A DNA stretch of 48,302 nucleotides, from the IMG/VR virus record IMGVR_UViG_3300045988_153358; one strand, given 5' to 3'. This document shows positions 691 through 43,411 of this stretch, in pieces. Made by a program: the position numbers and the translations under genes. The notes under the pieces were generated by a model that searched no databases, had not been told where the DNA came from, and worked only from the letters and a program-made list of their open reading frames with translations. The DNA is from a virus. Lineage: Duplodnaviria; Heunggongvirae; Uroviricota; Caudoviricetes. Each line of letters starts with the position of its first letter. The first letter of the stretch is position 1.

Positions 691-1031
691 GCTGTAGTGA
701 GAATCCATGCGATTACGAGCAGTATTCAGATATTCAGAGCGGGTAATGAAGCACATACAACCGAAAACATGGCAGAAACTGGACTCTATGGGAGCTAAGT
801 TGGAGAAGATTACTCAACTTAAGCAGTGGCATATCGGCGAATATTATGGAAGTCCTGGTCGGGATGTTCGGTTGGTAAAAAGTTGAACATTGTTTTTTTA
901 TTGATCGATTAACCACGATATGAAGGTTTTTTTTATGGAAAAACCTTGTTTTAGATGGTAACTGGGTGTAGTGTTTCATTTAACGTAGTAAAACTGCGTT
1001 AAGCGATTACCGCGTAATTTGTTGCTTTATG

Positions 1032-5985: not shown

Positions 5986-6609
5986 ATGACAAAACATCTT
6001 AATGTGGTTTCTTTACCACTTTCTGTGTTGATTGGTTATGAAAAGAACGCTCGCACACACTCCGTGGAGCAGGTAGATCAGATTGTTGCCAGCATACAGG
6101 AGTACGGATGGACTAATCCGATCCTGATAGACGAGAACAACGTTGTAATTGCTGGTCATGGTCGAATTGCTGCGGCCACTCAGTTGGGGATGGATGATGT
6201 TCCCTGCATTGTTCTGGCTGGGCTAACGGAGAATCAGAAGAAGGCATATCGTCTGGCCGACAACCGTATTCCGCTGAATGCTGGTTGGGATGAAGAGTTG
6301 TTAAGCGCGGAGCTTGCAGATCTTGCGGCCGATGATTTTGCTCTGGACTCAATTGGTTTTACTCAGCGCGAACTGGATAACTTATTGAGTGCGGCGGTCT
6401 ACGATGACACAGAGGGTATGGATATCCCATTTGAGAAGGATGAGGCCAAATCAGGCGTAAAAGTTCAGTACCTGTCATTTGGAGGTCATAAAATCCCGGC
6501 AACGGATGAGGAAGCGGATCGTTTTGACTGCGCGGTGTCTCGTTATGTTGATGATAATGGCAGCTATATCGGATTTGTATCCGCATTGCTGGCTGGGGAG
6601 GTGTGCTGA
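5986..6609 (+). CDS. ParB-like nuclease domain protein (copy 1)
   Basis: ParB N-terminal domain motifs (IAGHGR, KKAYRLADN); paralog of 9275-9865. Confidence 0.75.
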   Translation: MTKHLNVVSLPLSVLIGYEKNARTHSVEQVDQIVASIQEYGWTNPILIDENNVVIAGHGRIAAATQLGMDDVPCIVLAGLTENQKKAYRLADNRIPLNAGWDEELLSAELADLAADDFALDSIGFTQRELDNLLSAAVYDDTEGMDIPFEKDEAKSGVKVQYLSFGGHKIPATDEEADRFDCAVSRYVDDNGSYIGFVSALLAGEVC

Positions 6610-20570: not shown

Positions 20571-23363
20571 ATGGCCAGCAATAAGAACTTTAAGCTGGCT
20601 TTTGAAATTGGCGGCAAAGTTGCCGCCTCTCTCCCCAAAAGTTTTACTACAGCTAATCAGGCTGTTGCTAAATTAAATGCCGAGCTTGCTGGATTAACGA
20701 AAGAACATGGGGAAATTCAAAAGCTACAATCTGTAAAAGTAAAGGTTGGACAGACTGCCCTCGAATATCATAAAGCTGCCGCTCGCGTTGAAGAGTTACA
20801 GAAGCAAATAAAAAACACGGCCAATCCAACCAGAGCGATGCTTCGTGACTTTGAGAAGGCAAAAACACATTCATCGAATTTACGAGCATCACTACGTTCT
20901 CAGCGTGAAGAACTGGCCGCTTTAAAGTCTGCCTATCAGGGAGCTGATACATCTGCCAGAGCTTTGGCTTCAAGAGAGAAAGAGCTTAAAGCCAGCATTG
21001 ATCGTAATCGTGAGGCTCAGGCCCGTAGCGTTGAGCAGGTTAACCGCTACAGAACGGCTTTGGCTTTAGCCAGAGCAAATGTTCAGCAAGTGAAAAAACA
21101 GCAGGAGGAACTTAACCGGGCATTAGAAAAACAACGTATTGATAAAATTAACAGCTATAAAAATGCGTTGGCTGAAGCACGGAAAAATGTTCTTGCAGTA
21201 AAACGTGCTCAGGAGGAGTTAAACCGCGCGTTGGAAAGGCAGCGTGAATTGAAGCGAGAGCATCTTGGTGAGGCAAAGAGTCAACTTGTAAGGTCAGGAT
21301 TACAAACTGGTGCTGTAGCTGCTGGTGCATTTGCTGCTGCTAACAATGCAGCAAATTTTAATCGTGAAAACAAAATGATTGGTCTTACGGCAGATATGAA
21401 GCCGGAAGAAGTTCAGGCGATGGGGCAGGCGATGCTTGTTACCGGAACGGCTACCAACCAGTTTGCATCTGATATTCAGGCCGCTCAGGGTTTTCTCGTC
21501 GCTGCTGGGCAGGATTATAAAGAGGCTCAGGCGAATCTACTAACTATTGGGCGAACAGCTACAGCTACTGGCTCTGATATCCTCGATGTCTCGAAAGCAT
21601 CATTTACATTAAGTGACTCATTGAAGATTGATCCATCTCAAATGAAGTCTGCAATGGGGATTCTGGTTCAGGCAGGGAAAGAGGGAAACTTTGAATTTAA
21701 AGATATGGCCAAAAATCTTCCTGTGCTTGGTGCCCAGTTCCAGGCATTAAAAATGGGAGGTAAAGAAGCCGCCGCGACGATGGGGGCAGCTTTGCAGATA
21801 GCTCGCAAAGGTGCTGCAACTTCGGATGAGGCTGCTAATAATATGAACAACTTTTTGGCGAAAATACTTTCCCCTGAAACACTAAAAAAAGCAAAGAAAA
21901 ATTTCGGTGTAGATTTATATAAAATTGTCACAACAGCGCAGAAAAAAGGGAAGAATCCATTCGAAGCTGCAATGCATTCTGTCATGAAAATGACTAAGAA
22001 CGGAGATCAGAAGTTACTTGGTGAGCTATTTGGCGATATGCAGGTTCAGAACTTTGTTCGTCCGATGATTCAAAACTGGAAGGAATACCAGAGAATCAAA
22101 GCAACATCTATTGGTGCTGGAAGTGCTGTTATTGACCGCGATTTTGCCAACATAACGAAAGACAATGCGGAGCGATTGAAACAATTACGTATTCAGGCTA
22201 GCAATGCATCATTAAGTTTTGGTCAGGCCTTGCAACCTGCTTTGAATGCCGCGCTTAGTGTTTTGGTTCCGCTGATTACAAAAATTAGTGAATTTGTAGC
22301 TAACAACCCCAATTTTGTGTCTCAGATTGTGATGGCGGCAGGTGCGTTTCTAACCATGAAAAGTGTGGTTATAGCGTGTAGGGTAGCTATGCTGGCTTTA
22401 TCTGTAGCGACAAAGCTAACACCCTTCGGGTGGATTCAGATGGCTATATCTGCGCTGGTTGCCGCAGGAATATTGCTCTATCAGAACTGGGATAAGATCA
22501 GAGATTATGCTGTCAGAGTTTGGCCTTCTGTTAAGGAATATACAGTTAAATCGTTTGAAGCTATAAAAAACTTTATCTTAAACTTTGATCTCAATGGATG
22601 GATTATATCTATGTTTGGTAAAGCATGGGATTATCTTTCCAACATAAACTGGAGTTCGGCAGGAGTAAGAATTTACAGTACATTAATTAGTGCTTTTAAA
22701 TGGATGTCTCCGCTTCCGTTCTTAATTAAAGCATTTAAACTTACAACAAATTACCTTTCTGGCATTAACTGGAGCGAAACAGGAAAGAAAATCATAGATA
22801 CACTGGTATCTGTTTTTATGCGTTTTTCACCAGTTGGACTCTTTATAAGAGCATTCCAATCTGTAACGGCTTATTTGTCTGGAATAAACTGGAGTGAGTC
22901 AGGCGCAAAAATAATTGAGACGTTAATCACTGGGATAAAATCAAAAGCAAATGCTTTAATTAATGAAGTGAAAGGCGTTTTTTCTTCTGTACGTGAGTAT
23001 TTACCGTTCTCTGATGCGAAAAAAGGTCCATTCTCACAGCTAACAAAGTCAGGTAGTGCAATAATGACTACTCTGGCATCTGGTGTTAGCAGAAATAACA
23101 GCTTACAGAATGCAATCGCAACCCAGTTCGGGCAATCAAATTTATCACCTCACGGGATCTCTGCTGCCGGGAGTTCTGGACCTCGCCAGAACGTTAACGC
23201 AGTGACTGGTGGGATAACCTATTCGCCTGTAATCAATCTTCCGGCTGGCTCACCAAAGGAAACTGAGGCGGCAGCTAAAAGAGCATTAGATGCGGGATAT
23301 TCTGATTTTGAGAAGAAATTGAGTGCTCATATGTTCCAACAACGGAGATTAAGTTTTGGATGA
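20571..23363 (+). CDS. tail tape measure protein
   Basis: 930 aa, coiled-coil rich, tandem about 40-aa repeats, hydrophobic segment; position. Confidence 0.85.
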   Translation: MASNKNFKLAFEIGGKVAASLPKSFTTANQAVAKLNAELAGLTKEHGEIQKLQSVKVKVGQTALEYHKAAARVEELQKQIKNTANPTRAMLRDFEKAKTHSSNLRASLRSQREELAALKSAYQGADTSARALASREKELKASIDRNREAQARSVEQVNRYRTALALARANVQQVKKQQEELNRALEKQRIDKINSYKNALAEARKNVLAVKRAQEELNRALERQRELKREHLGEAKSQLVRSGLQTGAVAAGAFAAANNAANFNRENKMIGLTADMKPEEVQAMGQAMLVTGTATNQFASDIQAAQGFLVAAGQDYKEAQANLLTIGRTATATGSDILDVSKASFTLSDSLKIDPSQMKSAMGILVQAGKEGNFEFKDMAKNLPVLGAQFQALKMGGKEAAATMGAALQIARKGAATSDEAANNMNNFLAKILSPETLKKAKKNFGVDLYKIVTTAQKKGKNPFEAAMHSVMKMTKNGDQKLLGELFGDMQVQNFVRPMIQNWKEYQRIKATSIGAGSAVIDRDFANITKDNAERLKQLRIQASNASLSFGQALQPALNAALSVLVPLITKISEFVANNPNFVSQIVMAAGAFLTMKSVVIACRVAMLALSVATKLTPFGWIQMAISALVAAGILLYQNWDKIRDYAVRVWPSVKEYTVKSFEAIKNFILNFDLNGWIISMFGKAWDYLSNINWSSAGVRIYSTLISAFKWMSPLPFLIKAFKLTTNYLSGINWSETGKKIIDTLVSVFMRFSPVGLFIRAFQSVTAYLSGINWSESGAKIIETLITGIKSKANALINEVKGVFSSVREYLPFSDAKKGPFSQLTKSGSAIMTTLASGVSRNNSLQNAIATQFGQSNLSPHGISAAGSSGPRQNVNAVTGGITYSPVINLPAGSPKETEAAAKRALDAGYSDFEKKLSAHMFQQRRLSFG

Positions 23364-23574
23364 TTATAGAACGGTTCAAGGGGACTCATGGGATAGCATC
23401 GCGTTAAAGTTGTATGGTAATGAGTACCTGTCTTATCTTCTTATTGATGCTAATACTGAGCACCGCTTTACGGTGCTTTTTTCTGCGGGAATTATTCTTA
23501 AAGTTCCTGATGCTCCGGTTATGCCAATATCAGTAAACAATTTGCCTCCGTGGAGACGCAATAGTGTTACGTAA
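23356..23574 (+). CDS. tail protein X-like (LysM-like), TTG start
   Basis: 72 aa with VQGDSWDSIALKLYG LysM-like pattern as in P2 gpX; GGAG Shine-Dalgarno. Confidence 0.7.
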   Translation: MDDYRTVQGDSWDSIALKLYGNEYLSYLLIDANTEHRFTVLFSAGIILKVPDAPVMPISVNNLPPWRRNSVT

Positions 23575-24565
23575 AACGCTTTTTGATGTTATATATCAGA
23601 ATGTAAATATTACCGCTCATATGTCACCTGATGTTTTGTCAATGTCTTATACAGATAATGAAGATGGTCAGGTCGATGATATTTCTATTATATTAAAAAA
23701 TGATGATGGGAAATGGTCTGGAGACTGGACACCTAAAAAGTGTGATTTTATTGATTTGAGCTTTAAGCCTATAAATCAAATCGTCCTTGAGTGCGGGAAA
23801 TTCCAGGTGGATGGCATAACTTGCTCTGGACCACCTTCTGTTGTTGAGGTGACTGCTGTTTCTGTTCCTGTTTCATCAGGCATTAGACGTGATTTAAAAA
23901 GTAATGCATGGGAAAAAACAACTCTTAAAGATATAGCGACTTCTATAGCTAAATTAGCTAACCTTGAACTGTTGTTTCTTATTGATGGTGATAGTAATCC
24001 ATATTATGCGCGTGAAGATCAAATGGAGGAAAGCGATTTAAAATTTCTCCATCGACTTTGCCAGGATGAAGGGGTGTCGTTAAAGGTCACTGATAGCCAA
24101 TTAATAATATTTGCTCAAGAGATGTTTGAGCAAAAAGATCCTATCGCTACGCTTACGTTAGGTATTGATGAGATAATCAGATATAGCTTTAGCACACAAT
24201 CTACAGATTTGTATAAAAGTTGCACGTGCAAATATCGCGTACCTAAAAAAAGAAAATCGCTTTCGTATACTTGGGTAGATCCATCCGTAGAAGAAGGGGC
24301 GAATCTTAAGATAAGAAAACTGGTAGCTAATTTAGATGAAGCAAAACGTAAGGCAAAGGCTGCTTTGCGGCTTAAAAATAGATATCAAAATACCGGATCT
24401 TTAGTTTTGGTTGGAGACACCAGATTGGTAGCTGGTGTAACTATAAATCTGGACGGATTTGGTTCATTTTCTGGAAAATATCTTATATCGAAAGCTGTGC
24501 ATTCAATTGGGGCTAGTGGTTATACCACCTCGATTGATGTCCGAAGAGTAATTAATGGGTATTAA
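23564..24565 (+). CDS. tail protein D-like (P2 gpD / Mu gpP family)
   Basis: 333 aa; position and pattern. Confidence 0.65.
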   Translation: MLRKTLFDVIYQNVNITAHMSPDVLSMSYTDNEDGQVDDISIILKNDDGKWSGDWTPKKCDFIDLSFKPINQIVLECGKFQVDGITCSGPPSVVEVTAVSVPVSSGIRRDLKSNAWEKTTLKDIATSIAKLANLELLFLIDGDSNPYYAREDQMEESDLKFLHRLCQDEGVSLKVTDSQLIIFAQEMFEQKDPIATLTLGIDEIIRYSFSTQSTDLYKSCTCKYRVPKKRKSLSYTWVDPSVEEGANLKIRKLVANLDEAKRKAKAALRLKNRYQNTGSLVLVGDTRLVAGVTINLDGFGSFSGKYLISKAVHSIGASGYTTSIDVRRVINGY

Positions 24566-27694: not shown

Positions 27695-30541
27695 GTGAGT
27701 AAATTATTATTTACGATGACTGACGCCGGGCGTAAGGCGCTGGTTAATGCCAACAAGACTGGAACAAATAAAGTTGAGATCGTTTCTGTTGGTTTAGGTA
27801 GTAGATATTATGCCACATCAACCACACAAACAAAAATAACAGATGAAATAAAGCGACTTACCACAATAGGAGGCAAAGTCGTTTCTCCTGATACCATTCA
27901 TGTAACTGCGAAGGATGATAGTAAAGATGAGTATGTTGTCCATACAATAGGTTTGTATACAAATAAAGGAACATTGTTTGCTGTATACTCGCAAGAACAA
28001 GTAATAATAAATAAAGCATCTTCTACAATTGCTTTAATATCAAGTGATATAGCAATTAAAAATCTTGATACTAAAAACATTACATTTGGTGATGTTGAGT
28101 TTATTAACCCTCCCGCAACCGAAACTGTTGTTGGAGTAGCAAGATTTGCTAATGAACAAGAAATTGATGCAGGTACAGATGATTCCCTGGCTGTTTCAGC
28201 AAAGCGGCTTAAGCAAGCTATTGTAAAACATGAGCAATCACGTAATCATCCTGATGCAACTTTAACATCAAAAGGCATTGTTCAACTCAGTAATGCCACC
28301 AATAGCACGTCTGAAAAGCTCGCAGCGACGCCTAAGGCTGTTAAGGCTGCATATGACCTGGCTGACGGAAAATATACCGCCCAGAATGCCACCACGGCAC
28401 AAAAAGGGATAGTTCAGCTCAGTAGTGCCACTAACAGTACGTCTGAAACGCAGGCGGCAACGCCAAAAGCGGTCAAGGCAGCAAATGACAACGCAAATTC
28501 ACGTCTGGCGAAAAATCAGAACGGTGCAGATATCCAGGATAAATCAGCTTTTCTGGACAATGTTGGCGTTACCAGCCTGACGTTTATGAAAAACAATGGC
28601 GAAATGCCGCTTGATGCTGATCTGAATACGTTTGGTCCTGTTAAGGCTTATTCAGGTATCTGGTCTAAAGCAACATCCACCAACGCAACACTGGAGAAAA
28701 ATTTCCCGGAAGATAATGCTGTCGGTGTGCTTGAGGTTTTTGCTGCCGGCAATTTTGCAGGTACGCAACGCTTTACCACGAGAGACGGCAATGTATACAT
28801 GCGTAAACTCGCCAATAAGTGGAATGGCACTGATGGTCCGTGGGGCGTATGGCGTCACACTCAATCTGCTACCCGCCCTTTGAGTACGACTATAGACCTG
28901 AATACGCTTGGAGCCGCCGAGCATCTTGGTTTATGGCGTAACAGTAGCTCAGCTATAGCTTCATATGAACGCAATTATCCAGAGGAAGGCGGCTTTGCTC
29001 AGGGGATGCTTGAGATCCTCGAAGGCGGAAATTATGGAAGAACGCAACGTTATACCACTCGCCGTGGAAATATGTATGTCCGCTGTCTTGCGGCAAGCTG
29101 GGATGCATCAAATCCGCAGTGGGAACCGTGGTTAAGAGTCGGTCATCAGTCAGAGAGTCGTTATTACGAAGGTGATTTGAATGATGTAACCTCACCAGGT
29201 ATTTACAGCGTTACAGGTAAAGCGACCAACGGTCCAGTACTGGACGGAAACGGCGTGACTGTACTCGGCATTCTGGAAGTGTTGAGGCGGTTTGATGGTG
29301 TTAATGTATGGCAGCGTTATACAACTGCCGGAACAGGTACAACCCTTAAAGGCCGCACCTTTGAGCGCGTCTTTACCGGCAGCTCATGGAGCGAATGGCG
29401 GGAAGTCTACACCTCGTATTCACTTCCCCTGAATCTAGGTATCGGCGGTGCTGTGGCAAAGCTCACCAGCCTGGACTGGCAGACCTACGATTTTGTGCCG
29501 GGCAGTCTGATAACCGTTCGGCTTGATAACATGACCAATATTCCCGACGGTATGGACTGGGGCGTCATTGATGGCAACCTGATAAACATCTCAGTCGGTC
29601 CGAGTGATGATTCTGGTTCGGGACGCTCAATGCATGTATGGCGCAGCACTGTAAGTAAAGCCAACTACCGCTTTTTTATGGTTCGCATTTCAGGAAATCC
29701 GGGAAGCCGCACGATCACGACAAGACGTGTGCCAATTATCGACGAAGCTCAGACATGGATGGCGAAACAGACATTCAGCGGTGGTCTTTCAGGCGAACTA
29801 TCCGGCAATGCTGCTACAGCAACAAAGCTGAAAACGGCAAGGACAATTAACGGCGTAAAATTTGACGGCTCGGCAAATATTGAAGCGTTTCCGCCAGGTG
29901 TTCCGCTGCCGTGGCCATCAGATACGCCACCTGCAGGTTATGCAATCATGCAGGGGCAGACGTTTGATAAGGCAGCATATCCGAAACTGGCTATTGCCTA
30001 TCCTTCTGGTGTTATTCCAGATATGCGCGGCTGGACAATCAAGGGCAAACCCGCCAGTGGTCGGGCCGTATTGTCTCAGGAACAGGATGGCATTAAATCG
30101 CACACCCACAGTGCCAGCGCATCCAGTACGGATTTGGGTACGAAAACCACATCGTCGTTTGATTACGGTACTAAATCAACGAATAACACAGGTGCACATA
30201 CCCACAATGTATCTGGTACTGCAAATAGTGCTGGCGCACATACTCATACCGTTCCATTAAGGAGACCAAACAGTGGCGGTATGAATTTCGACTGGCTGGA
30301 TGGTTCATCAAGTGGCACGGTGGTGGGGAATGGAACTGTGCCTTCTTCTGGCGCACATACCCACTCAGTATCAGGTACCGCTACAAGTGCTGGGGCACAT
30401 GCACACACTGTTGGTATTGGCGCTCATACGCACTCTGTTAAGATTGGTTCACATGGACACACCATCACCGTTAACGCTGCTGGTAACGCGGAAAACACCG
30501 TTAAAAACATCGCATTTAATTATATTGTGAGGCTTGCATAA
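27695..30541 (+). CDS. tail fibre protein (start GTG 27695 or ATG 27716)
   Basis: 948 aa; tandem [23 protein letters not shown] repeats; C-terminal GAHTH repeats. Confidence 0.85.
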
Positions 30542-31685: not shown

Positions 31686-32155
31686 AAGATAATCATGTGA
31701 CCAATTATTGTAATAATTTTAATGGTATGTTTCTACTGGCTATCCAGCGTGTCTGATATCCAGTAACAAATCGTCAACACGGGTGCAATCAAATGGTGAG
31801 TGTTAAGACTGACCACTTATTACCAGGTATGAGTGGCCAGCATTAAATCAGAACAGCCCTTTAACTGAACTGGCCGCGCTGTTAAGGGATGATGTCACCT
31901 TATCTTTGAAGCCGGACAGCATATTGCTGAACGATGAGTTTACCGCAGGTTTCTGGCTGGGAATCATTGACTGGAGTTAGGCCAGTAGTATGATGCTCGC
32001 AAAACGAGATCCAATTTAGATCCTTTTACTGGTGGATTATCGTTCGATCAGTGAGAGACTTCGTGCATGACCGAAAGTGTTGTGGTAGAGTTCTCTTAAA
32101 ACCACGTAACGTGGTTATGATTGTGGGTGTCTGGTTGGAAAGTGACCAGATATGG

Positions 32156-32268
32156 AAACAAAAAGCCCGCAGATAAATCTGCGGGCTTCTTGCGACATCC
32201 ACGGAAAACCAACAATTAACCATGGGCGCCTCGACAACTCCCATTATACGTTGGTTTTCCGTGGACGC
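32156..32268 (-). ncRNA. candidate CopA-like antisense RNA region for repA control
   Basis: 16-bp perfect inverted repeat 32198-32213 / 32250-32265 with about 36-nt loop; 10-bp hairpin 32163-32188 followed on the minus strand by a U-run. Confidence 0.45.
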
Positions 32269-32280
32269 AAGAGCGAACAT

Positions 32281-33129
32281 ATGGATAGACCAATGCCGTC
32301 TCTACGTTCAGCTTACGTTTGTAATTTGTCGCCGGAGTTCCAGCGTCCAAAGCACCATACGCACAAGCTGCCGCTGGTGTTATCTGATGCTTTACAGCGC
32401 ATTAATGGGCGTGATCTTACGTGTGAGGTTGCGTTCTACGTTAATCAACCGTCAGAGCGGAAGCGCCGGATAAACGAGCATCGTCGTCGGGCGATTAATG
32501 CTGTGATCGCTGCGATTTTGCACCATGTAAACATCATTTCTAAGCGGGTTCTGGCTAGTGCTGAGGCGTTGGCTGATTTTTGCGGCCTGTCTACCGTATC
32601 CGAAGCTGGGAACAAGTCTATAACGCGCTGTACAAGGGCGTTGTCGCAACTGAAAGCGTTAGGTTTTATTGATTATGAACGTCGCTGGGATCGGGTGAAT
32701 AAACAGTATTGGCCAGCGAAAATAGAGATTCGTGATCAACTGCTGGAAACCGTTGGTATTACTGAACAAGCATGGAGACGTGCGGTTAGCCAGAAACTTA
32801 ATTACTTCAATGCGAAGAATAGCGAACGGCTTAAAAAAGCGATAACGGAGGCTGATTATAAGCGTATTGTTATTCAGGAGCAGATGGAGAATGTATGGCG
32901 TCAGAGGAAGACGGCCAGAGAGATAAAGGCAAAACAGAAAGCAGCGGAGAGAGCTGCGCGTCTTGTTCGGGAAAAGGGAGAGGCCGAACTTCGTCATCAA
33001 ATCACCAGAGAGGTTAGTCAGGAATTTGCTGATGGCATGTATCCTGGTGCTGACCTTGCATATTTACGATCCCTCGTTGAGCAGCGTTATAACAGGTTAA
33101 GAAAGACCTGGAAATCACTCCAACATTAA
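32281..33129 (+). CDS. repA: plasmid replication initiator RepA, IncFII RepA1-like
   Basis: central region (GLSTVSEAGNKSITRCTRALSQLKALGFIDYE) closely resembles R100/R1 RepA1; ORF extends upstream to 32152 but that stretch holds the stem-loops. Confidence 0.75.
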   Translation: MDRPMPSLRSAYVCNLSPEFQRPKHHTHKLPLVLSDALQRINGRDLTCEVAFYVNQPSERKRRINEHRRRAINAVIAAILHHVNIISKRVLASAEALADFCGLSTVSEAGNKSITRCTRALSQLKALGFIDYERRWDRVNKQYWPAKIEIRDQLLETVGITEQAWRRAVSQKLNYFNAKNSERLKKAITEADYKRIVIQEQMENVWRQRKTAREIKAKQKAAERAARLVREKGEAELRHQITREVSQEFADGMYPGADLAYLRSLVEQRYNRLRKTWKSLQH

Positions 33130-37494: not shown

Positions 37495-38694
37495 TTATGG
37501 TCTGCTCTTCTGTGCCAGCTTATCAGCACATGTTTTTATCAGATCCTGTAGTGTCCTGGCTGGCAGGTTTGCATCCAGTACGCTGAGTATGCTGTTGTGA
37601 TCTGCTTGGTCGACTACTTTGCCTGTCGGTGGTAGTAGCTTGAGCTGAGGATTCAGGTTTTCGTCAAAGCTGATAAGTGCTCTGGCGTTTCTGAGCAGAT
37701 CAAGAAGTAAGGCTGATATCACATTTTCCTGAGTCATTGCTGACAGATTTAGCGCCGCTTTGGTTTTCCCTGTTGCCTTGTCAAACTCCTTGATTAGTTC
37801 CTTCCTGTAGTTCGGTTCCGTTAATAGCCGATTATGCTCTGTTGCCGCGCGGATAATCGTTTTTTCCTGGTACAGTCGTTTAGCCAGATCACGCTCGTAC
37901 TGTGTTTTTAACACGCTGCTGATAGCGTTAAAGGCTTCAATGTAGGCCAGCTTGATATCTTTCACGCCTGGACCGTCGATACTTTCCATGAGCAAGGTAA
38001 ATCCGTCTTTTGTCATGCGATAGATTGTTATTTCGCGGTCGCTTCCTTCCAGCGGTCGTTGCTCTTTAAAGAAATGACGTGCCGCAGCTGTGCGAGGAAT
38101 GCGTAACGCATCGATGGCCATAACGATGGAATTGTTTGTGGTGCTGAATGCCTGGGCAACATCGGCTGAGGTTGTGAGTGGCTCGTTGTTGCACACCTTA
38201 ATGTAAAACATCGGTTTGGCGTTGAGCGTATCGACAACCTCACGAGCATTGTTTGGCGAGACGGTTACGGTCGCGGCCGTTTGTGTGTTCTGGCTGAAAT
38301 AGCAGTCTTCCAGCCGTTCGAACACATCCCAAGCCTGATCGGTTTCAAGCATTTTGGCGTGACGTGCAGCCCCGCGTTCTGTCCAGAGAATGAGGGAGCG
38401 GGCTTTCGGGGAAATTTGTAACCCTCTTAAAGATGGTTGCACATTTTGTGAGTTACTTAAAGTAACCCGCAAATTTTGTGAGTGACTTAAAGTCACTCGC
38501 AAAGTTTTTAACTCATCGCCAGCCACTTTGAAAAAATGCTTTCCTTCAATAAAGCGGTTTGCGTTACGTGAGTAATTTTTTTTGATGTTATCAACGTCTG
38601 TGCCGTATAGCTTTGCCAGTAGTTCAGTAGTGATAACGGGGATCTGGTTATGCAGGATAGGCTGTAGGGTGTTAACGGTCGGAAGCGTTTTCAT
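37495..38694 (-). CDS. antirepressor-like protein (ORF6N/KilA-type N-terminus, Rha-like C-terminal part)
   Basis: ITTELLAKLYGTDVDNIKKNYSRNANRF motif; downstream of a small overlapping ORF and structured RNA region. Confidence 0.65.
   Translation of the reverse strand: MKTLPTVNTLQPILHNQIPVITTELLAKLYGTDVDNIKKNYSRNANRFIEGKHFFKVAGDELKTLRVTLSHSQNLRVTLSNSQNVQPSLRGLQISPKARSLILWTERGAARHAKMLETDQAWDVFERLEDCYFSQNTQTAATVTVSPNNAREVVDTLNAKPMFYIKVCNNEPLTTSADVAQAFSTTNNSIVMAIDALRIPRTAAARHFFKEQRPLEGSDREITIYRMTKDGFTLLMESIDGPGVKDIKLAYIEAFNAISSVLKTQYERDLAKRLYQEKTIIRAATEHNRLLTEPNYRKELIKEFDKATGKTKAALNLSAMTQENVISALLLDLLRNARALISFDENLNPQLKLLPPTGKVVDQADHNSILSVLDANLPARTLQDLIKTCADKLAQKSRP
38443..38502. repeat. two tandem 30-bp dyad-symmetric repeats inside the antirepressor gene
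   Basis: ATTTTGTGAGTTACTTAAAGTAACCCGCAA then ATTTTGTGAGTGACTTAAAGTCACTCGCAA; arms GTTAC/GTAAC versus GTGAC/GTCAC. Confidence 0.8.
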
Positions 38695-38882
38695 TTTGCA
38701 CCTCCCATAACTACTTTGGTTACGAGGGAGATTTTTGCGTCAGAAACAGCGTTATCGTTGCTGGCGATGCGCATAGCTTCGCGCTCGATGATTTCAGCCA
38801 GGCGGAATTTATCGGCGTATGAGGCTTTCTTGAGAAGGATCTTTACGAGGTTGACGTAATAGTCATGGGGTAGGTTTGTCAT
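38691..38882 (-). CDS. small ORF (63 aa) overlapping the antirepressor start; icd-like position
   Basis: 4-nt overlap with downstream gene; AGGGA Shine-Dalgarno. Confidence 0.45.
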   Translation of the reverse strand: MTNLPHDYYVNLVKILLKKASYADKFRLAEIIEREAMRIASNDNAVSDAKISLVTKVVMGGAK

Positions 38883-39046
38883 TGTGATGATTCCCTTAAA
38901 GGTTAAGGATACTCACCACCGTCAGGTTCCAATCATTGGGTGGTGAGACGTGCAGGGTTGGAACTACCGGACACAATGACGAACCGGCGAGTCTTACGAC
39001 TCCCCCGCACGCCCCACCATAATTTGGGTGTAGCAGTGCTTTACGC

Positions 39047-39150
39047 ATAAAAAAACCGCTAACGCGGTATGCGCCATTGTGTCTACGGGGTTCCAATCCC
39101 GACCGTAGATTTTGCTACGGCTCGGAAAGTGTCCACCAATGGCGCATTCA
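39047..39150 (-). ncRNA. candidate c4-like antisense sRNA (5-prime end not determined)
   Basis: minus-strand hairpin ACCGC-GUUA-GCGGU plus U7 at 39049-39068; stem CCGUAG/CUACGG; GAUUGGAACC element repeated in the leader at 38925-38936 and complementary to 38954-38964. Confidence 0.35.
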
Positions 39151-39638
39151 TGTCAATACGGCGGGATTTTAACAGAGACAACCACATAGCGTGGGTTTAT
39201 TGGTAGGCAGAAACAAAAAAACCGCCCTATTGAGGACGGTTCTTTCGTGCTGATCGGATTCGCGGTCCTTTCAGCATAACGTCGTTGTATAAACAACCAC
39301 GCAAGCACAAGCAGCAAGTTAATTTTACCCAAAAGGTAATAATAGTCCACTATTATGCTTCAAAAAATTGTGGTTCTTGTTGTGCCTGCAAACTCACAGA
39401 TTGTGGGTAGGTTACTGATTTTGTGAAAATAAACGAGTTTTTTCGTTTAATTTCTTTCCTATTACTAATCTTAAAATAATCGTAAAATACCTGTGGACCT
39501 TCCCGCCGATTCGCACCCGGGCACCGACTTTAGGGGAGGATTCTCCGTTGCCGTACATGCAAGCACAAGCAGCCGTGCTTGCTCTCGCGTTGTTTTCGTC
39601 GGTGGGGATGCCGTGAAACGGCCTGTAAGGGCCATACA

Positions 39639-39761
39639 ATGAAAAAATACTGTATGTGTATTTTTATCGTTGTTACTGGGGCTTTGTTTACGCCACATGG
39701 GGAGGGTTGGAAGATTACTGATAACGCTCTGAATGTGACGATAAACATTAGCAGCAAGTAG
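39639..39761 (+). CDS. possible small hydrophobic peptide (40 aa)
   Basis: AAGGG Shine-Dalgarno 8 nt upstream; translation MKKYCMCIFIVVTGALFTPHGEGWKITDNALNVTINISSK; strong terminator follows. Confidence 0.3.
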   Translation: MKKYCMCIFIVVTGALFTPHGEGWKITDNALNVTINISSK

Positions 39762-39766
39762 CGATT

Positions 39767-39790
39767 AGGCCCCTTCGGGGGCCTTTTTTA
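39767..39790 (+). terminator. Rho-independent terminator with UUCG tetraloop
   Basis: AGGCCCC-TTCG-GGGGCCT followed by TTTTT. Confidence 0.75.
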
Positions 39791-40010: not shown

Positions 40011-40259
40011 TTACTTCTGGTTGTATTGAGCCTTGAGTAACTCAAAAGATTTTGTCAGCACTTCTTTCAATGACATATCCATTGAGCTGGCGAACGTTTT
40101 GTACTCGCGTTTAAATTCAGGGTCGACGTTAAACGCCATTTGTGCCCCACCTGATTTGGTTCTGGTTGGCGTTTCAGTCGGGTCGAAAACCTGCGGTTGT
40201 TCGATCGATGGCGGTACGCCTTTGCTGTTCTTCTTTGGTGGTTTTGATGGTCCGGCCAT
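40011..40259 (-). CDS. ParG-like ribbon-helix-helix partition/centromere-binding protein
   Basis: 82 aa; disordered basic N-terminus, C-terminal RHH-like segment; adjacent to ParA. Confidence 0.55.
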   Translation of the reverse strand: MAGPSKPPKKNSKGVPPSIEQPQVFDPTETPTRTKSGGAQMAFNVDPEFKREYKTFASSMDMSLKEVLTKSFELLKAQYNQK

Positions 40260-40302
40260 GTGTATCCCCTCTTATATAAATCTATAAATCTATAATTATA
40301 TA
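40260..40302. promoter_or_regulatory. AT-rich repeat motif between parA stop and parG start
   Basis: tandem TATAAATC units; same motif family as other intergenic sites. Confidence 0.5.
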
Positions 40303-40956
40303 TTACGCGGCAGTAGTCAGAGCCTCAAGCTGGTTGATAATCCCCTGAATAACGTCGTCTGCCTTTTTGCGTGGCGCAACGTATGAGCATTCAATGAGGC
40401 TTAAGCCCTTATCCTGAGCTTTGCTCAGAGCTGGCTTGTGGGGAATGTACTTATCGACAACAAAGTATGGCGTATTAGCCAGGTACTCTTGGGCTTCAAT
40501 GTAGTCGGCTTCGTTTTCAGCCGCGCCTGAGAACACCATGCAAATTTTCTTGATTGGCACACCCTTTTTAACGATGCCGTGAGCTGTGTTAACGGTGGTT
40601 TCTAGGTCATCGGTAGAGAATCTGGTTGGCAAAATAACCATATCCAGAAATTCAGAGAGCTTCGGTACTGATTCAGATGCGTAGGCACCGCCATCGACGA
40701 TAACCAGGTCGTATACTTCTGATTCGATGATTTTCTGGACTTGTGATGGCGTGCCGCACGGCTGCGCCGCGATTGCAGGTTCGATATTGTTGGCCATTCT
40801 GCGTTGTACCCAACGCGTTACCGTTCCGTTAAGCACATCCATATCGATCAGGCATACATTCCAGCCGGCCTTTGCATAAGCAACTGCTAAAGCACGGGCA
40901 ATTGTTGATTTGGTTACGCCGCCTTTTCCGTTGAAAATACCTACAGAGATAGTCAT
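40303..40956 (-). CDS. parA: ParA/MinD-type partition ATPase
   Basis: deviant Walker A GIFNGKGGVTKST; start at second ATG chosen because of GGAG Shine-Dalgarno. Confidence 0.8.
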   Translation of the reverse strand: MTISVGIFNGKGGVTKSTIARALAVAYAKAGWNVCLIDMDVLNGTVTRWVQRRMANNIEPAIAAQPCGTPSQVQKIIESEVYDLVIVDGGAYASESVPKLSEFLDMVILPTRFSTDDLETTVNTAHGIVKKGVPIKKICMVFSGAAENEADYIEAQEYLANTPYFVVDKYIPHKPALSKAQDKGLSLIECSYVAPRKKADDVIQGIINQLEALTTAA

Positions 40957-40974
40957 TTGTCGAGACTCCATGTG

Positions 40975-41080
40975 TTTGGTTATATAATTCTATAAATCTA
41001 TATTTATAGAACGAGGTAAGCATAACCAACTTTTTGGCGGATGAAAAGCGTTTTATATAATTATATAAATCTATAATCAT
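40975..41080. promoter_or_regulatory. parA upstream region with two further copies of the AT-rich motif
   Basis: 40981-41010 and 41053-41077 carry TATATAATT...TATAAATCTATA-type elements. Confidence 0.5.
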
Positions 41081-41106
41081 GTAAGCGGGCGTTAGCCCGC
41101 TTTCAG

Positions 41107-41481
41107 TCAGAGGTCAGCTATCGTTGATATCAGTTGATTTGCTAGCTGTCGCTGTTTACGTGAGAGGGTGAGAGCAGCTTCTGAGCGGTCGCTAAGAGGG
41201 GTGTTTTCATCAAGAATCATGAGGCATACAGAAATAATAGCCCTGTTATATGCCATCAATGGCTGGCACAGCTTCGATATCGCTGGCACATCGTATTGTA
41301 AGGCCGTTTTGAGGCAGACTTTTTGTTCTGATGCCAGATGAAGGATAGATTCTATCCAGTCGATATCTTTCTCATTATCAATGATTTGGCATAACATACA
41401 CTCAATCGCTATGTTCAACGCTTGGATTTCGATTCCAGCAGTGATCAGAGTTTCGTTTTTATTGGCTGTATGTAATTCCAT
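41107..41481 (-). CDS. hypothetical protein (124 aa) between repressor and par locus
   Basis: ORF track. Confidence 0.5.
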   Translation of the reverse strand: MELHTANKNETLITAGIEIQALNIAIECMLCQIIDNEKDIDWIESILHLASEQKVCLKTALQYDVPAISKLCQPLMAYNRAIISVCLMILDENTPLSDRSEAALTLSRKQRQLANQLISTIADL

Positions 41482-41517
41482 GCGTAGCCTCTTTTATACT
41501 TTTACATGTTGTCAAAA

Positions 41518-41530
41518 CCACAAAATGTGG
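41518..41530. promoter_or_regulatory. operator-like dyad CCAC-N5-GTGG downstream of the repressor gene
   Basis: CCACAAAATGTGG, same pattern as the sites in the cI-cro intergenic region. Confidence 0.45.
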
Positions 41531-41573
41531 TTTTTTTGAGCGTAGAAATGCACGGCTTTCGCCGTGCTGTGTA

Positions 41574-42230
41574 TCATAACCAGTTGACAACACTAACTAC
41601 GCGGCCAAGAACTTTATAACGCTTAAATTCCTCGTTATTCAGATGCTTAGTGTTCATTTCAGCATCCCTTTCGGTTGACAGCATAACAGCATTGTCACCC
41701 GGTATGACTCTACAGTGCCTCAAAACAACCAGGCCATTTCTGTCTTCAAGGGCATAGATCCCCTCATGAATCTCTGTATCGTCTGTATTAATCAGGACTT
41801 GGGAGCCAGGGGATATTGTTGGTGACATTAACTCATCGTTGCTCTGGAGAACTGACAGAGACGATGGGTTGATGTTCTTGCTTCGTAGAATCTCCTGTTC
41901 TATCGCCAGCACTGGCTTTTCTCCGGCGTGCGATGCTATGTCATTTTTTATAGCTACAAGCCCAGGAATAACAGGAGCGTTAGTATTCTGGGGTGGGAAC
42001 GGGTTATCTGTTAAGCACGCGATATAAGGCGCTGATGCTTTCAGGGCGTGCGCGATTTTCTTGATGGCAGGTATAGATGGTTGTCTTAATCCGGCCTCAT
42101 AGTTCTGCAAGGTGCTTAAGCCTATTCCAGTGACTTGCTGGAGATCTCCGGCAGTCATGCCGGATTGTTTCCGTAGAGTCTGAATGCGCAGACCTATTTC
42201 TTTCTTGATGTTCTCGTCGTTGCTTTTCAT
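41574..42230 (-). CDS. CI-like repressor (N-terminal HTH, C-terminal S24/LexA-like peptidase domain)
   Basis: HTH GMTAGDLQQVTGIGLSTLQNYEAG; S24-like C-terminal region; divergent from cro-like gene. Confidence 0.8.
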   Translation of the reverse strand: MKSNDENIKKEIGLRIQTLRKQSGMTAGDLQQVTGIGLSTLQNYEAGLRQPSIPAIKKIAHALKASAPYIACLTDNPFPPQNTNAPVIPGLVAIKNDIASHAGEKPVLAIEQEILRSKNINPSSLSVLQSNDELMSPTISPGSQVLINTDDTEIHEGIYALEDRNGLVVLRHCRVIPGDNAVMLSTERDAEMNTKHLNNEEFKRYKVLGRVVSVVNWL

Positions 42231-42404
42231 GTCTCATCAATCGTGAATGGTGGGTTATTTATACATTACCACATTTAGTGGTTTTCACATGGTAAGACGA
42301 GAGGTGGACCACAAATAGAAGGTTATTTTTTGTTTCGCCCATTGAAAAACTCACGATATGTGGTTTTAATACCACATATCGTGGTTTTGACTGGAGTTCG
42401 TTAA
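42231..42404. promoter_or_regulatory. cI-cro intergenic switch with three CCAC-N5-GTGG operator-like sites
   Basis: CCACATTTAGTGG 42269-42281, TCACGATATGTGG 42351-42363, CCACATATCGTGG 42372-42384. Confidence 0.6.
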
Positions 42405-42899
42405 ATGACCTTTCAGGAGTGGGTTGACGAAAATGGAGGCCAAATTGGTGTTGCCAGAAAGTTTGGCTTTACGTCATCACTGATTGGTGCCTGGTATCGC
42501 TTCGAGAGATTCCCTCGTGCGGATAACCTGACGCTGCTGGTGGCGTATTCGGAAGGCCGGATTAACGTCCAGCAATGGGCGGCAGATTTTGCCGAACGTC
42601 AGCGCCAGCGTAGCGATGGCACATCGGTTCGGCAGAACAAGATCAAAGGGAATCTCCCTGTTAACTGCTTATCAAGGCTGAAAGCGGTTTTCTCTGAGCT
42701 GGGGATGCCTGCGGAGCGTTGCAATCTACGCGGTCCGCGATTCATTGCTCGCTGGAAACACTCACATGTAACCGTTTCAGAGGTTCGTGATGCGATTACC
42801 GTGCTGGAGCTTAAGAATAAAGATTCCAGCGATATCGAGCTGATTCATAAGGAGATTAGCAACGCCCGGCGTTCAGCACTTGGGAGGCTTGAGGAATGA
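42405..42899 (+). CDS. Cro-like regulator with extra C-terminal domain (164 aa)
   Basis: divergent from cI; N-terminal Cro/YdaS-like region. Confidence 0.5.
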   Translation: MTFQEWVDENGGQIGVARKFGFTSSLIGAWYRFERFPRADNLTLLVAYSEGRINVQQWAADFAERQRQRSDGTSVRQNKIKGNLPVNCLSRLKAVFSELGMPAERCNLRGPRFIARWKHSHVTVSEVRDAITVLELKNKDSSDIELIHKEISNARRSALGRLEE

Positions 42900-43411
42900 T
42901 GATTCTGGCCTTCTTTGGTGATAATCACCAGATTCAATCGCAGGTGGTGCACTACCTTGATCAAACGATTAAAGGATTTGTTATCGATCATATTGATAAC
43001 GATAGCAAACGTCTATCTGTAGAGCAGAAAATTGGAGGTGTGCAGCGACTGGTTGCCAGCCGTAACAGACGTGACACCGTAACAGTCGTTACGGGGATTA
43101 CGGAGGTCATGGAGTACCAGATGTTGCTGCATCGTGGAGCTGTTTTCTGCGTTCTTCCTGGTATTCTGCCAGCAATTCTTGCTCGTGGTTTTGTCCCTAT
43201 TGATGAGTCGTTCTTATATGTAACCCCAAGCCGTTCCCTTCTGGATACGGAGGCGAAGCGTCGCATTTATATGATGCCGGACGAGGCATTTTCTGAATGT
43301 TACCGCCGTGAAATGAGGTTGGGTAAACGAGAAGTGTCTGTTGTTCGTGATGGCAGGTTTTTAAGAAGCCGCACGGTGAAAAGCACCAGAAATGACGGGG
43401 GCCATCAATGA
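42896..43411 (+). CDS. hypothetical protein (171 aa)
   Basis: ORF track. Confidence 0.5.
   Translation: MMILAFFGDNHQIQSQVVHYLDQTIKGFVIDHIDNDSKRLSVEQKIGGVQRLVASRNRRDTVTVVTGITEVMEYQMLLHRGAVFCVLPGILPAILARGFVPIDESFLYVTPSRSLLDTEAKRRIYMMPDEAFSECYRREMRLGKREVSVVRDGRFLRSRTVKSTRNDGGHQ

Follow-up and report, generated by a model that had tools for sequence, protein, structure and literature searches.

How far does the repressor of a phage-plasmid reach beyond the switch that its own gene borders? We address this question in IMG/VR virus record IMGVR_UViG_3300045988_153358, a stretch of 48,302 nucleotides (the whole of which we call the window) that is a circular, ~48-kb myovirus-type phage-plasmid of Escherichia coli. 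A CI-like repressor gene (cI) and a cro-like gene diverge here, and the initial annotation had noted a family of 13-bp CCAC-N5-GTGG dyads around them: three between the two genes and a fourth downstream of cI, in front of a gene for a 124-amino-acid (aa) protein (orf124), such that the repressor might also control orf124 and, through it, the neighbouring par locus. Two additional dyads, one at the replication gene repA and one at an antirepressor operon, change this picture from that of a local switch to that of a dispersed repressor regulon. With moderate confidence, we favour a reading in which one CI protein would act on the rightward early promoter (PR) through operators O3 and O4, on its own promoter through O2, and, with one operator each (O1, O5 and O6, respectively), on orf124, repA and the antirepressor operon.

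The CCAC-N5-GTGG dyad family

The genes and dyads that carry the argument are listed here by window coordinates, with the score of each dyad under the weight matrix described below.

42405-42899, plus strand: cro-like gene, 164 aa, first gene of the rightward early operon
41574-42230, minus strand: cI, 218-aa repressor with an HTH_3 domain and a weak S24-like domain; phrog_4
41107-41481, minus strand: orf124; phrog_7632
32152-33129, plus strand: repA, IncFII RepA family
41518-41530: O1, dyad CCACAAAATGTGG, extended form AAAACCAC-N5-GTGGTTTT; 30.6 bits
42269-42281: O2, dyad CCACATTTAGTGG, in which AACCACTnAATGTGGTAA is invariant in six genomes; 25.6 bits
42351-42363: O3, dyad TCACGATATGTGG, with one mismatch; 24.4 bits
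42372-42384: O4, dyad CCACATATCGTGG; 29.5 bits
32102-32114: O5, dyad CCACGTAACGTGG (AAAACCACGTAACGTGGTTATG), extended form AAAACCAC-N5-GTGGTTAT; 29.7 bits
39182-39194: O6, dyad CCACATAGCGTGG, upstream of the isrK-C4-orf63-ant operon; 22.6 bits

The placement of the four dyads first described was borne out, with O2, O3 and O4 in the 174 bp that separate cI from the cro-like gene and O1 downstream of cI, where it is kept in every lineage examined. Exact matches to CCACNNNNNGTGG are found at O1, O2 and O4, and O3 reads TCAC-N5-GTGG. Across the window, the exact CCAC-N5-GTGG pattern occurs 6 times against 0.37 expected, a count reached in none of 100 shuffles, and the motif extends past 13 bp to AAAACCAC-N5-GTGGTTTT. 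We then scored the window with a weight matrix trained solely on sites from other genomes, using 200 simulated windows as the null: all six sites scored at least 22.6 bits, compared with a null maximum of 19.4 bits, and O5 and O6, which lie beyond the interval originally noted, are thus of the same quality as the sites within it. O1 scores highest in the window, and highest in most relatives too (where the matrix included the relatives' own sites).

Several further matches were set aside. One at 29055, within coding sequence of the tail-fibre region (7.7 bits), was taken as chance, as was one at 39394, which at 13.9 bits falls inside the null range and was not found in the E. coli O145 relative. 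A pair at 5995 and 6016 (11.7 and 9.0 bits) was not counted, being within the null range as well; these two operator-like sequences at 5995-6028, spaced by 21 bp, fall within the opening codons of a ParB/Srx-like gene, and the pair recurs in Salmonella at 16.2 and 11.7 bits, still in the range of chance.

Conservation was assessed among relatives of the element. On the full record, an IncFII-family repA, a ParA gene and toxin-antitoxin genes accompany head, tail and lysis genes of the myovirus type, which is why we class the element as a phage-plasmid; its relatives are circular plasmids, and no protelomerase is annotated on the full record. Its 40900-42900 region matches E. coli plasmid pWP5-S18-ESBL-08_3 (NZ_AP022164.1, 47.5 kb, circular) at 100% identity and, at 99%, the Yersinia phages vB_YpM_39, 41 and 44, all three isolated on Yersinia pestis. 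This region is also matched by 58 complete non-mobilizable plasmids of 46-51 kb, nearly all from Escherichia; the reference strain E. coli ATCC 25922 carries one such relative (NZ_CP009073.1, 48.5 kb). More distantly, tblastn searches with CI and orf124 recovered Salmonella plasmids at 65% and 59% identity and a Serratia marcescens plasmid (CP083756.1, lineage L008) whose CI is 33% identical, and a protein search with orf124 added Citrobacter amalonaticus (L010), Yokenella regensburgei (L012 and L013) and contig L014; an E. coli O145 relative is coded L002. The order of the cro-like gene, cI, orf124, parA, its small partner gene and the antirepressor gene is identical in all relatives. The plasmid pSLy3 was considered as a possible instance of this element and rejected, as it belongs to the ~100-kb SSU5 supergroup.

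All four of the dyads around cI are found at matching places in the five lineages whose CI proteins are 61-66% identical to that of the window, with unchanged arms and differing 5-bp spacers; these positions are kept in Salmonella, Citrobacter, Yokenella and L014. O5 is likewise kept in Salmonella, Citrobacter and Yokenella, and the L014 contig, which retains O1 to O4, ends before repA. In a six-genome alignment of the switch region, invariant columns make up 22/24 of the arm positions, compared with 4/15 in the spacers and 46/135 in the remaining intergenic sequence. The motif also tracks the divergence of the repressor: Serratia CI differs where the recognition helix starts, and the Serratia plasmid carries a different motif, AACCACAnnnnG, which is present at the switch, in two copies downstream of cI, and also at repA and in the late region. 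Enrichment, out-of-genome matrix scores and conservation of the arms together confirm the dyads as a real operator family at the divergent cI/cro-like switch, with at least two members outside the interval first reported.

Promoter context of the dyads

What these dyads would control depends on the promoters beneath them, which in the switch region we read from the sequence. O2 overlaps the predicted extended -10 element TGgTAATGT (42271->42263, minus strand) of the leftward cI promoter, which is conserved (with TAAAGT or TAAGGT in relatives), and its centre lies at about -19 from the predicted start, which is the position of lambda OR3; CI bound there would produce negative autoregulation of the cI promoter. 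Rightward, the predicted PR consists of TTGAAA (42342-42347), a 17-nt spacer and TTTAAT (42365-42370), with a conserved -35 element that reads TTGATA, TTGCTT or TTGAAT in relatives, an assignment that draws on conservation and geometry. O3, 82 bp from O2, fills the PR spacer, and O4 lies directly 3' of the -10 element and covers the predicted start point. O3 and O4 are inverted copies of each other, spaced 21 bp apart in all six genomes; at this distance of two helical turns they bracket the PR -10 element, and their joint occupancy by CI would silence the cro-like early operon. The label "cro-like" reflects gene position and a single weak PHROG match (phrog_35, E 0.0023, residues 1-53); the 164-aa protein has no Pfam or PDB sequence match, and its AlphaFold2 (AF2) model, with a predicted local distance difference test (pLDDT) score of 57, is too poor for a fold search.

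Beyond the switch, O5 lies ~50 bp upstream of the annotated repA start and is kept with an altered spacer in both Salmonella plasmids, in Citrobacter and in Yokenella, with Serratia carrying its own motif variant at this place. It sits directly downstream of an extended -10 element, TGnTAGAGT (32083-32091), that is invariant even in Serratia, and is flanked on the other side by the -10-like TATGAT (32116-32121), so that it overlaps the core promoter under either promoter reading. At the level of sequence, O5 is a putative operator on the promoter of a replication initiator gene, the arrangement that defines N15-type coupling.

The predicted leader downstream of O5 resembles that of IncFII replicons. 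The true start of repA is probably near 32272, leaving 32098-32270 as a leader of ~170 nt; relatives annotate a 277-aa RepA. A conserved predicted promoter on the minus strand opposes this leader (TTGCGT 32270->32265, 16 nt, TATAAT 32248->32243), and a conserved minus-strand terminator hairpin lies within it at 32159-32192, from which we predict a CopA-like antisense RNA of ~90 nt (32150-32270, minus strand). A search with the Rfam CopA model at a permissive threshold gave no match, returning terminator-like partial matches only. Upstream of repA we found no copB-like gene or small repressor open reading frame (ORF): this place is taken by a divergent hexapeptide acetyltransferase gene in the window and by a resolvase gene in Salmonella and Citrobacter. 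In plasmid R1, CopB represses the stronger repA promoter, PrepA (PMC5717011), and in N15 copy number is set by the repressor CB, which acts at three OR sites and, on the repA promoter, at two OL sites (PMC4488713). CI bound at O5 would repress repA, taking the role that CopB has in R1, and would tie replication to the immunity state as CB does in N15.

The second remote site, O6, precedes an operon that comprises the following features.

39049-39121, minus strand: isrK RNA (Rfam isrK, 67.7 bits)
38936-39024, minus strand: C4 antisense RNA (Rfam C4, 77.8 bits against a cut-off of 45)
38691-38882, minus strand: orf63, a 63-aa ORF
37495-38694, minus strand: ORF6N/Rha antirepressor gene (ant)

The start point of a conserved promoter, TTGACA-17-GACACT, coincides exactly with the 5' end of the isrK model, and the centre of O6 lies at -67 from there. 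Upstream of this is a second predicted promoter with an extended -10 element, which reads TGTTAAAAT in E. coli (39174->39166, minus strand) and TGGTAGATT in Citrobacter and Yokenella, and from which the O6 centre lies at about -29 to -31. O6 also occurs, at an equal distance, in E. coli O145, in Citrobacter and in Yokenella (L012 and L013). CI at this single putative operator would repress the antirepressor operon, in a layout that resembles the C1-controlled promoter of the P1 immI operon.

The N-terminal part of CI matches HTH_3 (4.5e-11) and the protein matches the phrog_4 transcriptional repressor family (9.6e-27), with a weak C-terminal S24-like match (E 0.0018, below the Pfam cut-off). 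In an alignment with lambda CI and LexA, the catalytic Ser column is occupied by Glu and the Lys column by Arg in all lineages (with Asp at the Ser column in Serratia CI), Ala-Ile stands in place of the Ala-Gly cleavage site in the CI of all lineages, and these positions fall within CI residues ~135-185. These replacements make RecA-stimulated self-cleavage of CI unlikely, and induction would then probably proceed through the antirepressor, which fits the isrK/C4 module. SOS control of the antirepressor operon was considered and rejected, as no LexA box is found near it; the LexA pattern is not enriched in the window.

Finally, we observed asymmetric relatives of the dyads, of the form ACCAC-N5-GAAGG, exactly 2 of which occur in the window against 0.06 expected.

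42308-42322, plus strand: H1, ACCACAAATAGAAGG, AACCAC-N5-GAAGG, between O2 and O3
912-926, plus strand: H2, ACCAC-N5-GAAGG, upstream of the lysis (late) genes

The centre of H1 lies at -62 from the predicted PR start and at -59 from the predicted cI promoter start, and that of H2 at -62 from a conserved predicted late promoter (TTGTTT 946-951, 17 nt, TAGTGT 969-974). At both loci the GAAGG half faces the rightward promoter, in which 17 nt separate a TTG-type -35 element from a -10 hexamer; the gap between GAAGG and the -35 element is 19 nt at both promoters in E. coli and 18 nt at both in the other lineages. The positions of H1 and H2 are conserved in every lineage, and the Serratia late region has two AACCAC sites 21 bp apart. 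This shared geometry suggests that H1 and H2 could be class-I-type activator sites, one for the early and one for the late rightward promoter.

The late control region around H2 (880-1062) is itself highly conserved, with the predicted promoter TTGTTT-17-TAGTGT, a hairpin AACGTAG..CTGCGTT and a strong terminator at 1030-1062 right before the holin gene. Its resemblance to the lambda PR'/6S RNA/tR' region implies a Q-like antiterminator; no such protein was identified.

O1, orf124 and the par locus

O1 lies within a gap of 92 bp that runs from the cI stop codon to the orf124 start, its centre 43 bp upstream of the orf124 ATG, and its position is kept, with a variable spacer, in L002, L007, L009, L010, L013 and L014. 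The gap also holds a terminator for cI.

41550-41567, minus strand: cI intrinsic-terminator hairpin, GCACGGC-loop-GCCGTGC

This hairpin is found in every lineage, with differing loops and a dG of -10.7 to -15.3 kcal/mol (six lineages); its T-run is weak in the window (ATTTCT), compared with 5-7 T in relatives. On the other side, 35-36 nt past O1, is the invariant translation start of orf124, GAGAGGCyaCGCATG, and the region from O1 to the Shine-Dalgarno (SD) sequence aligns without large gaps. O1 thus lies between the conserved cI terminator and the orf124 SD, and any orf124 promoter must overlap it. It is on these grounds reasonable to propose that CI controls orf124, with repression as the most likely role of O1, which would then be an operator like lambda OL at PL, and like the OL sites of N15, that keeps orf124 off in the lysogen.

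The promoter at which such repression would act is less distinct. The sole conserved -10-like candidate, TGTAAAAGT in the window, is weak and lies 7 nt before the SD with no -35 element; E. coli O145 has TGTGAAAGT there and one relative TACAAATG. The centre of O1 would be at about -32 from the start set by this candidate. A TTGACA beside O1 was considered as the -35 element and rejected, having no -10 element at 16-18 nt and not being conserved, and a TATAAA considered as the -10 element was rejected as well, for its lack of conservation and its overlap with the SD. The corresponding motif of Serratia directly adjoins a good -10 element, TAGGAT, 8-9 nt upstream of the SD of the orf124 homologue.

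Several observations weigh against the regulon that we propose. The stretch from the cI terminator to the orf124 SD shows no strong sigma-70 promoter, and the TGTAAAAGT candidate is no more than partly conserved, so that orf124 could instead be fed by read-through of the weak cI terminator. The -10 element of PR lacks the usual A at position 2, and a promoter scan omitted PR. At the predicted cI promoter there is no dyad at -42, the nearest conserved element being H1 at -59, and positive autoregulation in the lambda style is accordingly not evident. O6 is absent from the Salmonella relatives and hence is not a universal part of the regulon. Lastly, the cro-like protein or some other factor could share or own the dyads.

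Among alternatives, the one that fares best gives O1 no promoter and treats it as an auxiliary operator for looping, comparable to lambda OL in its action on OR or to the FL/FR sites of phage 186; O1 would then raise the local CI concentration, tighten PR repression and cI autorepression, and leave orf124 to be expressed by read-through only. The top score of O1 in the window and in most relatives, the lack of a convincing orf124 promoter and the retention by CI of an S24-like oligomerisation domain are all in keeping with this idea. However, O5 and O6 are also remote and single, and the exact coincidence of each with a conserved promoter-like element suggests an operator role for single sites in this system; the Serratia motif abutting TAGGAT also speaks against it, as does an O1-O2 distance that ranges from 751 to 759 bp among genomes, though phasing weighs little at such length. 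We therefore regard looping without a promoter as rather unlikely, and note that O1 could also loop to O2-O4, 750-860 bp away, in a manner compatible with its repressing orf124.

Alternatively, CI at O1 might activate orf124, making it a gene expressed in lysogeny and regulated jointly with cI and the par genes in a leftward maintenance module. A promoter with no -35 element is what would be seen at an activator-dependent promoter, the TTGACA adjoins the O1 dyad in the window, and orf124 sits among plasmid-state genes. Against this, the centre of O1 falls at about -32 rather than -41.5, overlapping the place of sigma region 4, and the TTGACA is neither conserved nor at a workable distance from a -10 element, making activation improbable in our estimation.

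A different objection concerns which protein reads the dyads. If they were bound mainly by another protein, such as the 164-aa cro-like protein, CI would recognize something else; the role of CI as binder is itself a prediction, and the asymmetric AACCAC-N5-GAAGG sites suggest recognition of the AACCAC half-site with more than one specificity. We consider this very unlikely, given that the dyads overlap the cI promoter as well as promoters that a prophage repressor should silence, and that 6-bp arms spaced 11 bp apart suit a helix-turn-helix (HTH) dimer such as CI. Moreover, in lambda, CI and Cro share operators. CB and Cro of N15 do the same (PMC4488713). CI is most likely the protein that binds the dyads, presumably as a dimer on the 17-bp form AACCAC-N5-GTGGTT, with the exact promoters, start points and sign of regulation all deduced from sequence.

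Whether control could pass from orf124 to the adjacent par genes depends on the orf124 product and on the par locus itself, whose features are as follows.

40303-40971, minus strand: ParA gene
40011-40259, minus strand: 82-aa ORF
40972-41016 and 41053-41089: clusters of 8-bp iterons (TATAAATC and variants), upstream of parA
40272-40308: a third cluster of the same iterons, between parA and the 82-aa gene

The orf124 gene is located between cI and parA in all relatives. Its product is acidic (pI 4.8, net charge -6), and its AF2 model is a confident four-helix bundle (pLDDT 91.6) for which a Foldseek search against PDB gave designed or generic four-helix bundles only, none at E <= 0.001. It has no Pfam match up to E = 10, its only PHROGs match is to a family without known function (phrog_7632), and the 12 homologues found by database search all fall within this plasmid group; no HTH, ribbon-helix-helix or other DNA-binding signature was detected in it. 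Following orf124 is a conserved GC hairpin, GCGGGC-loop-GCCCGC, with TTTATA after it in relatives. The par iterons are arranged in a layout typical of type Ib partition operons autoregulated by a small centromere-binding protein, and presumably constitute the centromere and operator of such a system. The suggestion that CI controls orf124, whose product would in turn control the par operon, draws on adjacency and shared orientation, and we find it unsupported and the least probable of the alternatives, given the intervening conserved hairpin, the iterons that par carries of its own upstream of parA and beside its small 82-aa partner gene, and an acidic product with generic four-helix-bundle matches and no DNA-binding signature.

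Other features of the element and its relatives lie outside this argument. A ryfA-family RNA is located between the par genes and the antirepressor operon and is missing there in the Salmonella, Citrobacter and Yokenella relatives; the ryfA family is a type I toxin-like locus in enterobacteria. The phage-plasmid also has a tRNA gene, and blaTEM-1 is found beside a recombinase gene in the distant Serratia relative (CP083756.1).

39493-39789, plus strand: ryfA-like RNA (ryfA family, 141.8 bits)
2853-2925: tRNA gene (Rfam tRNA, 67 bits)
23202-24062 of the Serratia plasmid: blaTEM-1

Comparison with known repressor systems

A more far-reaching proposal, which we put forward only tentatively, is that a CI incapable of self-cleavage may serve as the single master regulator of a mosaic phage-plasmid, replacing CopB on an IncFII replicon and gating its own antirepressor operon, with H1 and H2 as a class-I-type activator input (by CI or by the cro-like protein) that would couple early and late transcription. 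Plasmid copy number and lytic DNA replication would then be two outputs of one repressor. This phage-plasmid is common, and the sites provide a concrete map of a repressor regulon, in which a single protein is predicted to control immunity, replication of the IncFII type and expression of the antirepressor. Such a regulon, if confirmed, would explain a switch from low-copy plasmid to lytic amplification without a dedicated lytic replicon, and the operators would be defined targets for engineering or curing such plasmids. A full-text literature search found nothing on the element, its operators, the Yersinia phage names or the plasmid name; the type of mechanism repeats the logic of lambda, N15 and P1, and the regulation of this element is apparently undescribed.

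The likeness to lambda was tested and found in a repressor gene and a cro-like gene that diverge around three operators, of which one lies at about -19 on the repressor promoter, like OR3, and two are close together on PR. It continues in an operator past the 3' end of cI that faces a leftward gene, as OL does at PL, and in a repressor with an N-terminal HTH domain and a C-terminal domain of the S24 fold. Unlike in lambda, the operators here are 13-17-bp CCAC-N5-GTGG dyads, O2 is 82 bp from O3 rather than adjacent to it, the -42 site is missing and the leftward operator is single. The repressor, moreover, has no catalytic Ser/Lys or Ala-Gly site, and the element is a plasmid, not an integrated prophage.

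With N15, phiKO2 and PY54, the element has in common a repressor operator at the repA promoter, here a putative one, which in N15 links immunity to copy number (PMC4488713), as well as a separate antirepressor locus. In N15, however, a primase-helicase-type repA adjoins cB and has two OL sites, whereas here it is orf124 that adjoins cI, and the repA gene is of the IncFII family, has a predicted CopA-like RNA and a single operator, and lies 9.4 kb from cI. N15 is also linear, with telomeres and protelomerase, whereas this plasmid is circular.

P1 and P7 offer a parallel for the layout of O6, where a candidate operator of the primary repressor lies ahead of an operon for C4 antisense RNA and antirepressor, and for operators scattered over the genome at several operons, replication included. 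In P1, C1 reportedly acts at such dispersed operators, and immI is said to comprise c4 RNA, icd and ant under Op51. The repressors differ, that of the window being a lambda-type HTH/S24-fold protein with palindromic operators and that of P1 belonging to the C1 family with asymmetric 17-bp operators; in addition, an isrK RNA precedes C4 here, and the operator of the ant operon is missing in the Salmonella lineage.

Finally, the replicon resembles those of the IncFII plasmids R1 and R100 in its RepA, in a long leader against which an antisense RNA of ~90 nt, ending in a strong terminator, is predicted to run, and in a putative repressor site on the repA promoter (for R1, PMC5717011). It differs from them in having no copB upstream and in that the site on the repA promoter belongs to the operator family of a prophage CI, such that replication would follow the lysis-lysogeny decision rather than a dedicated copy-number repressor.

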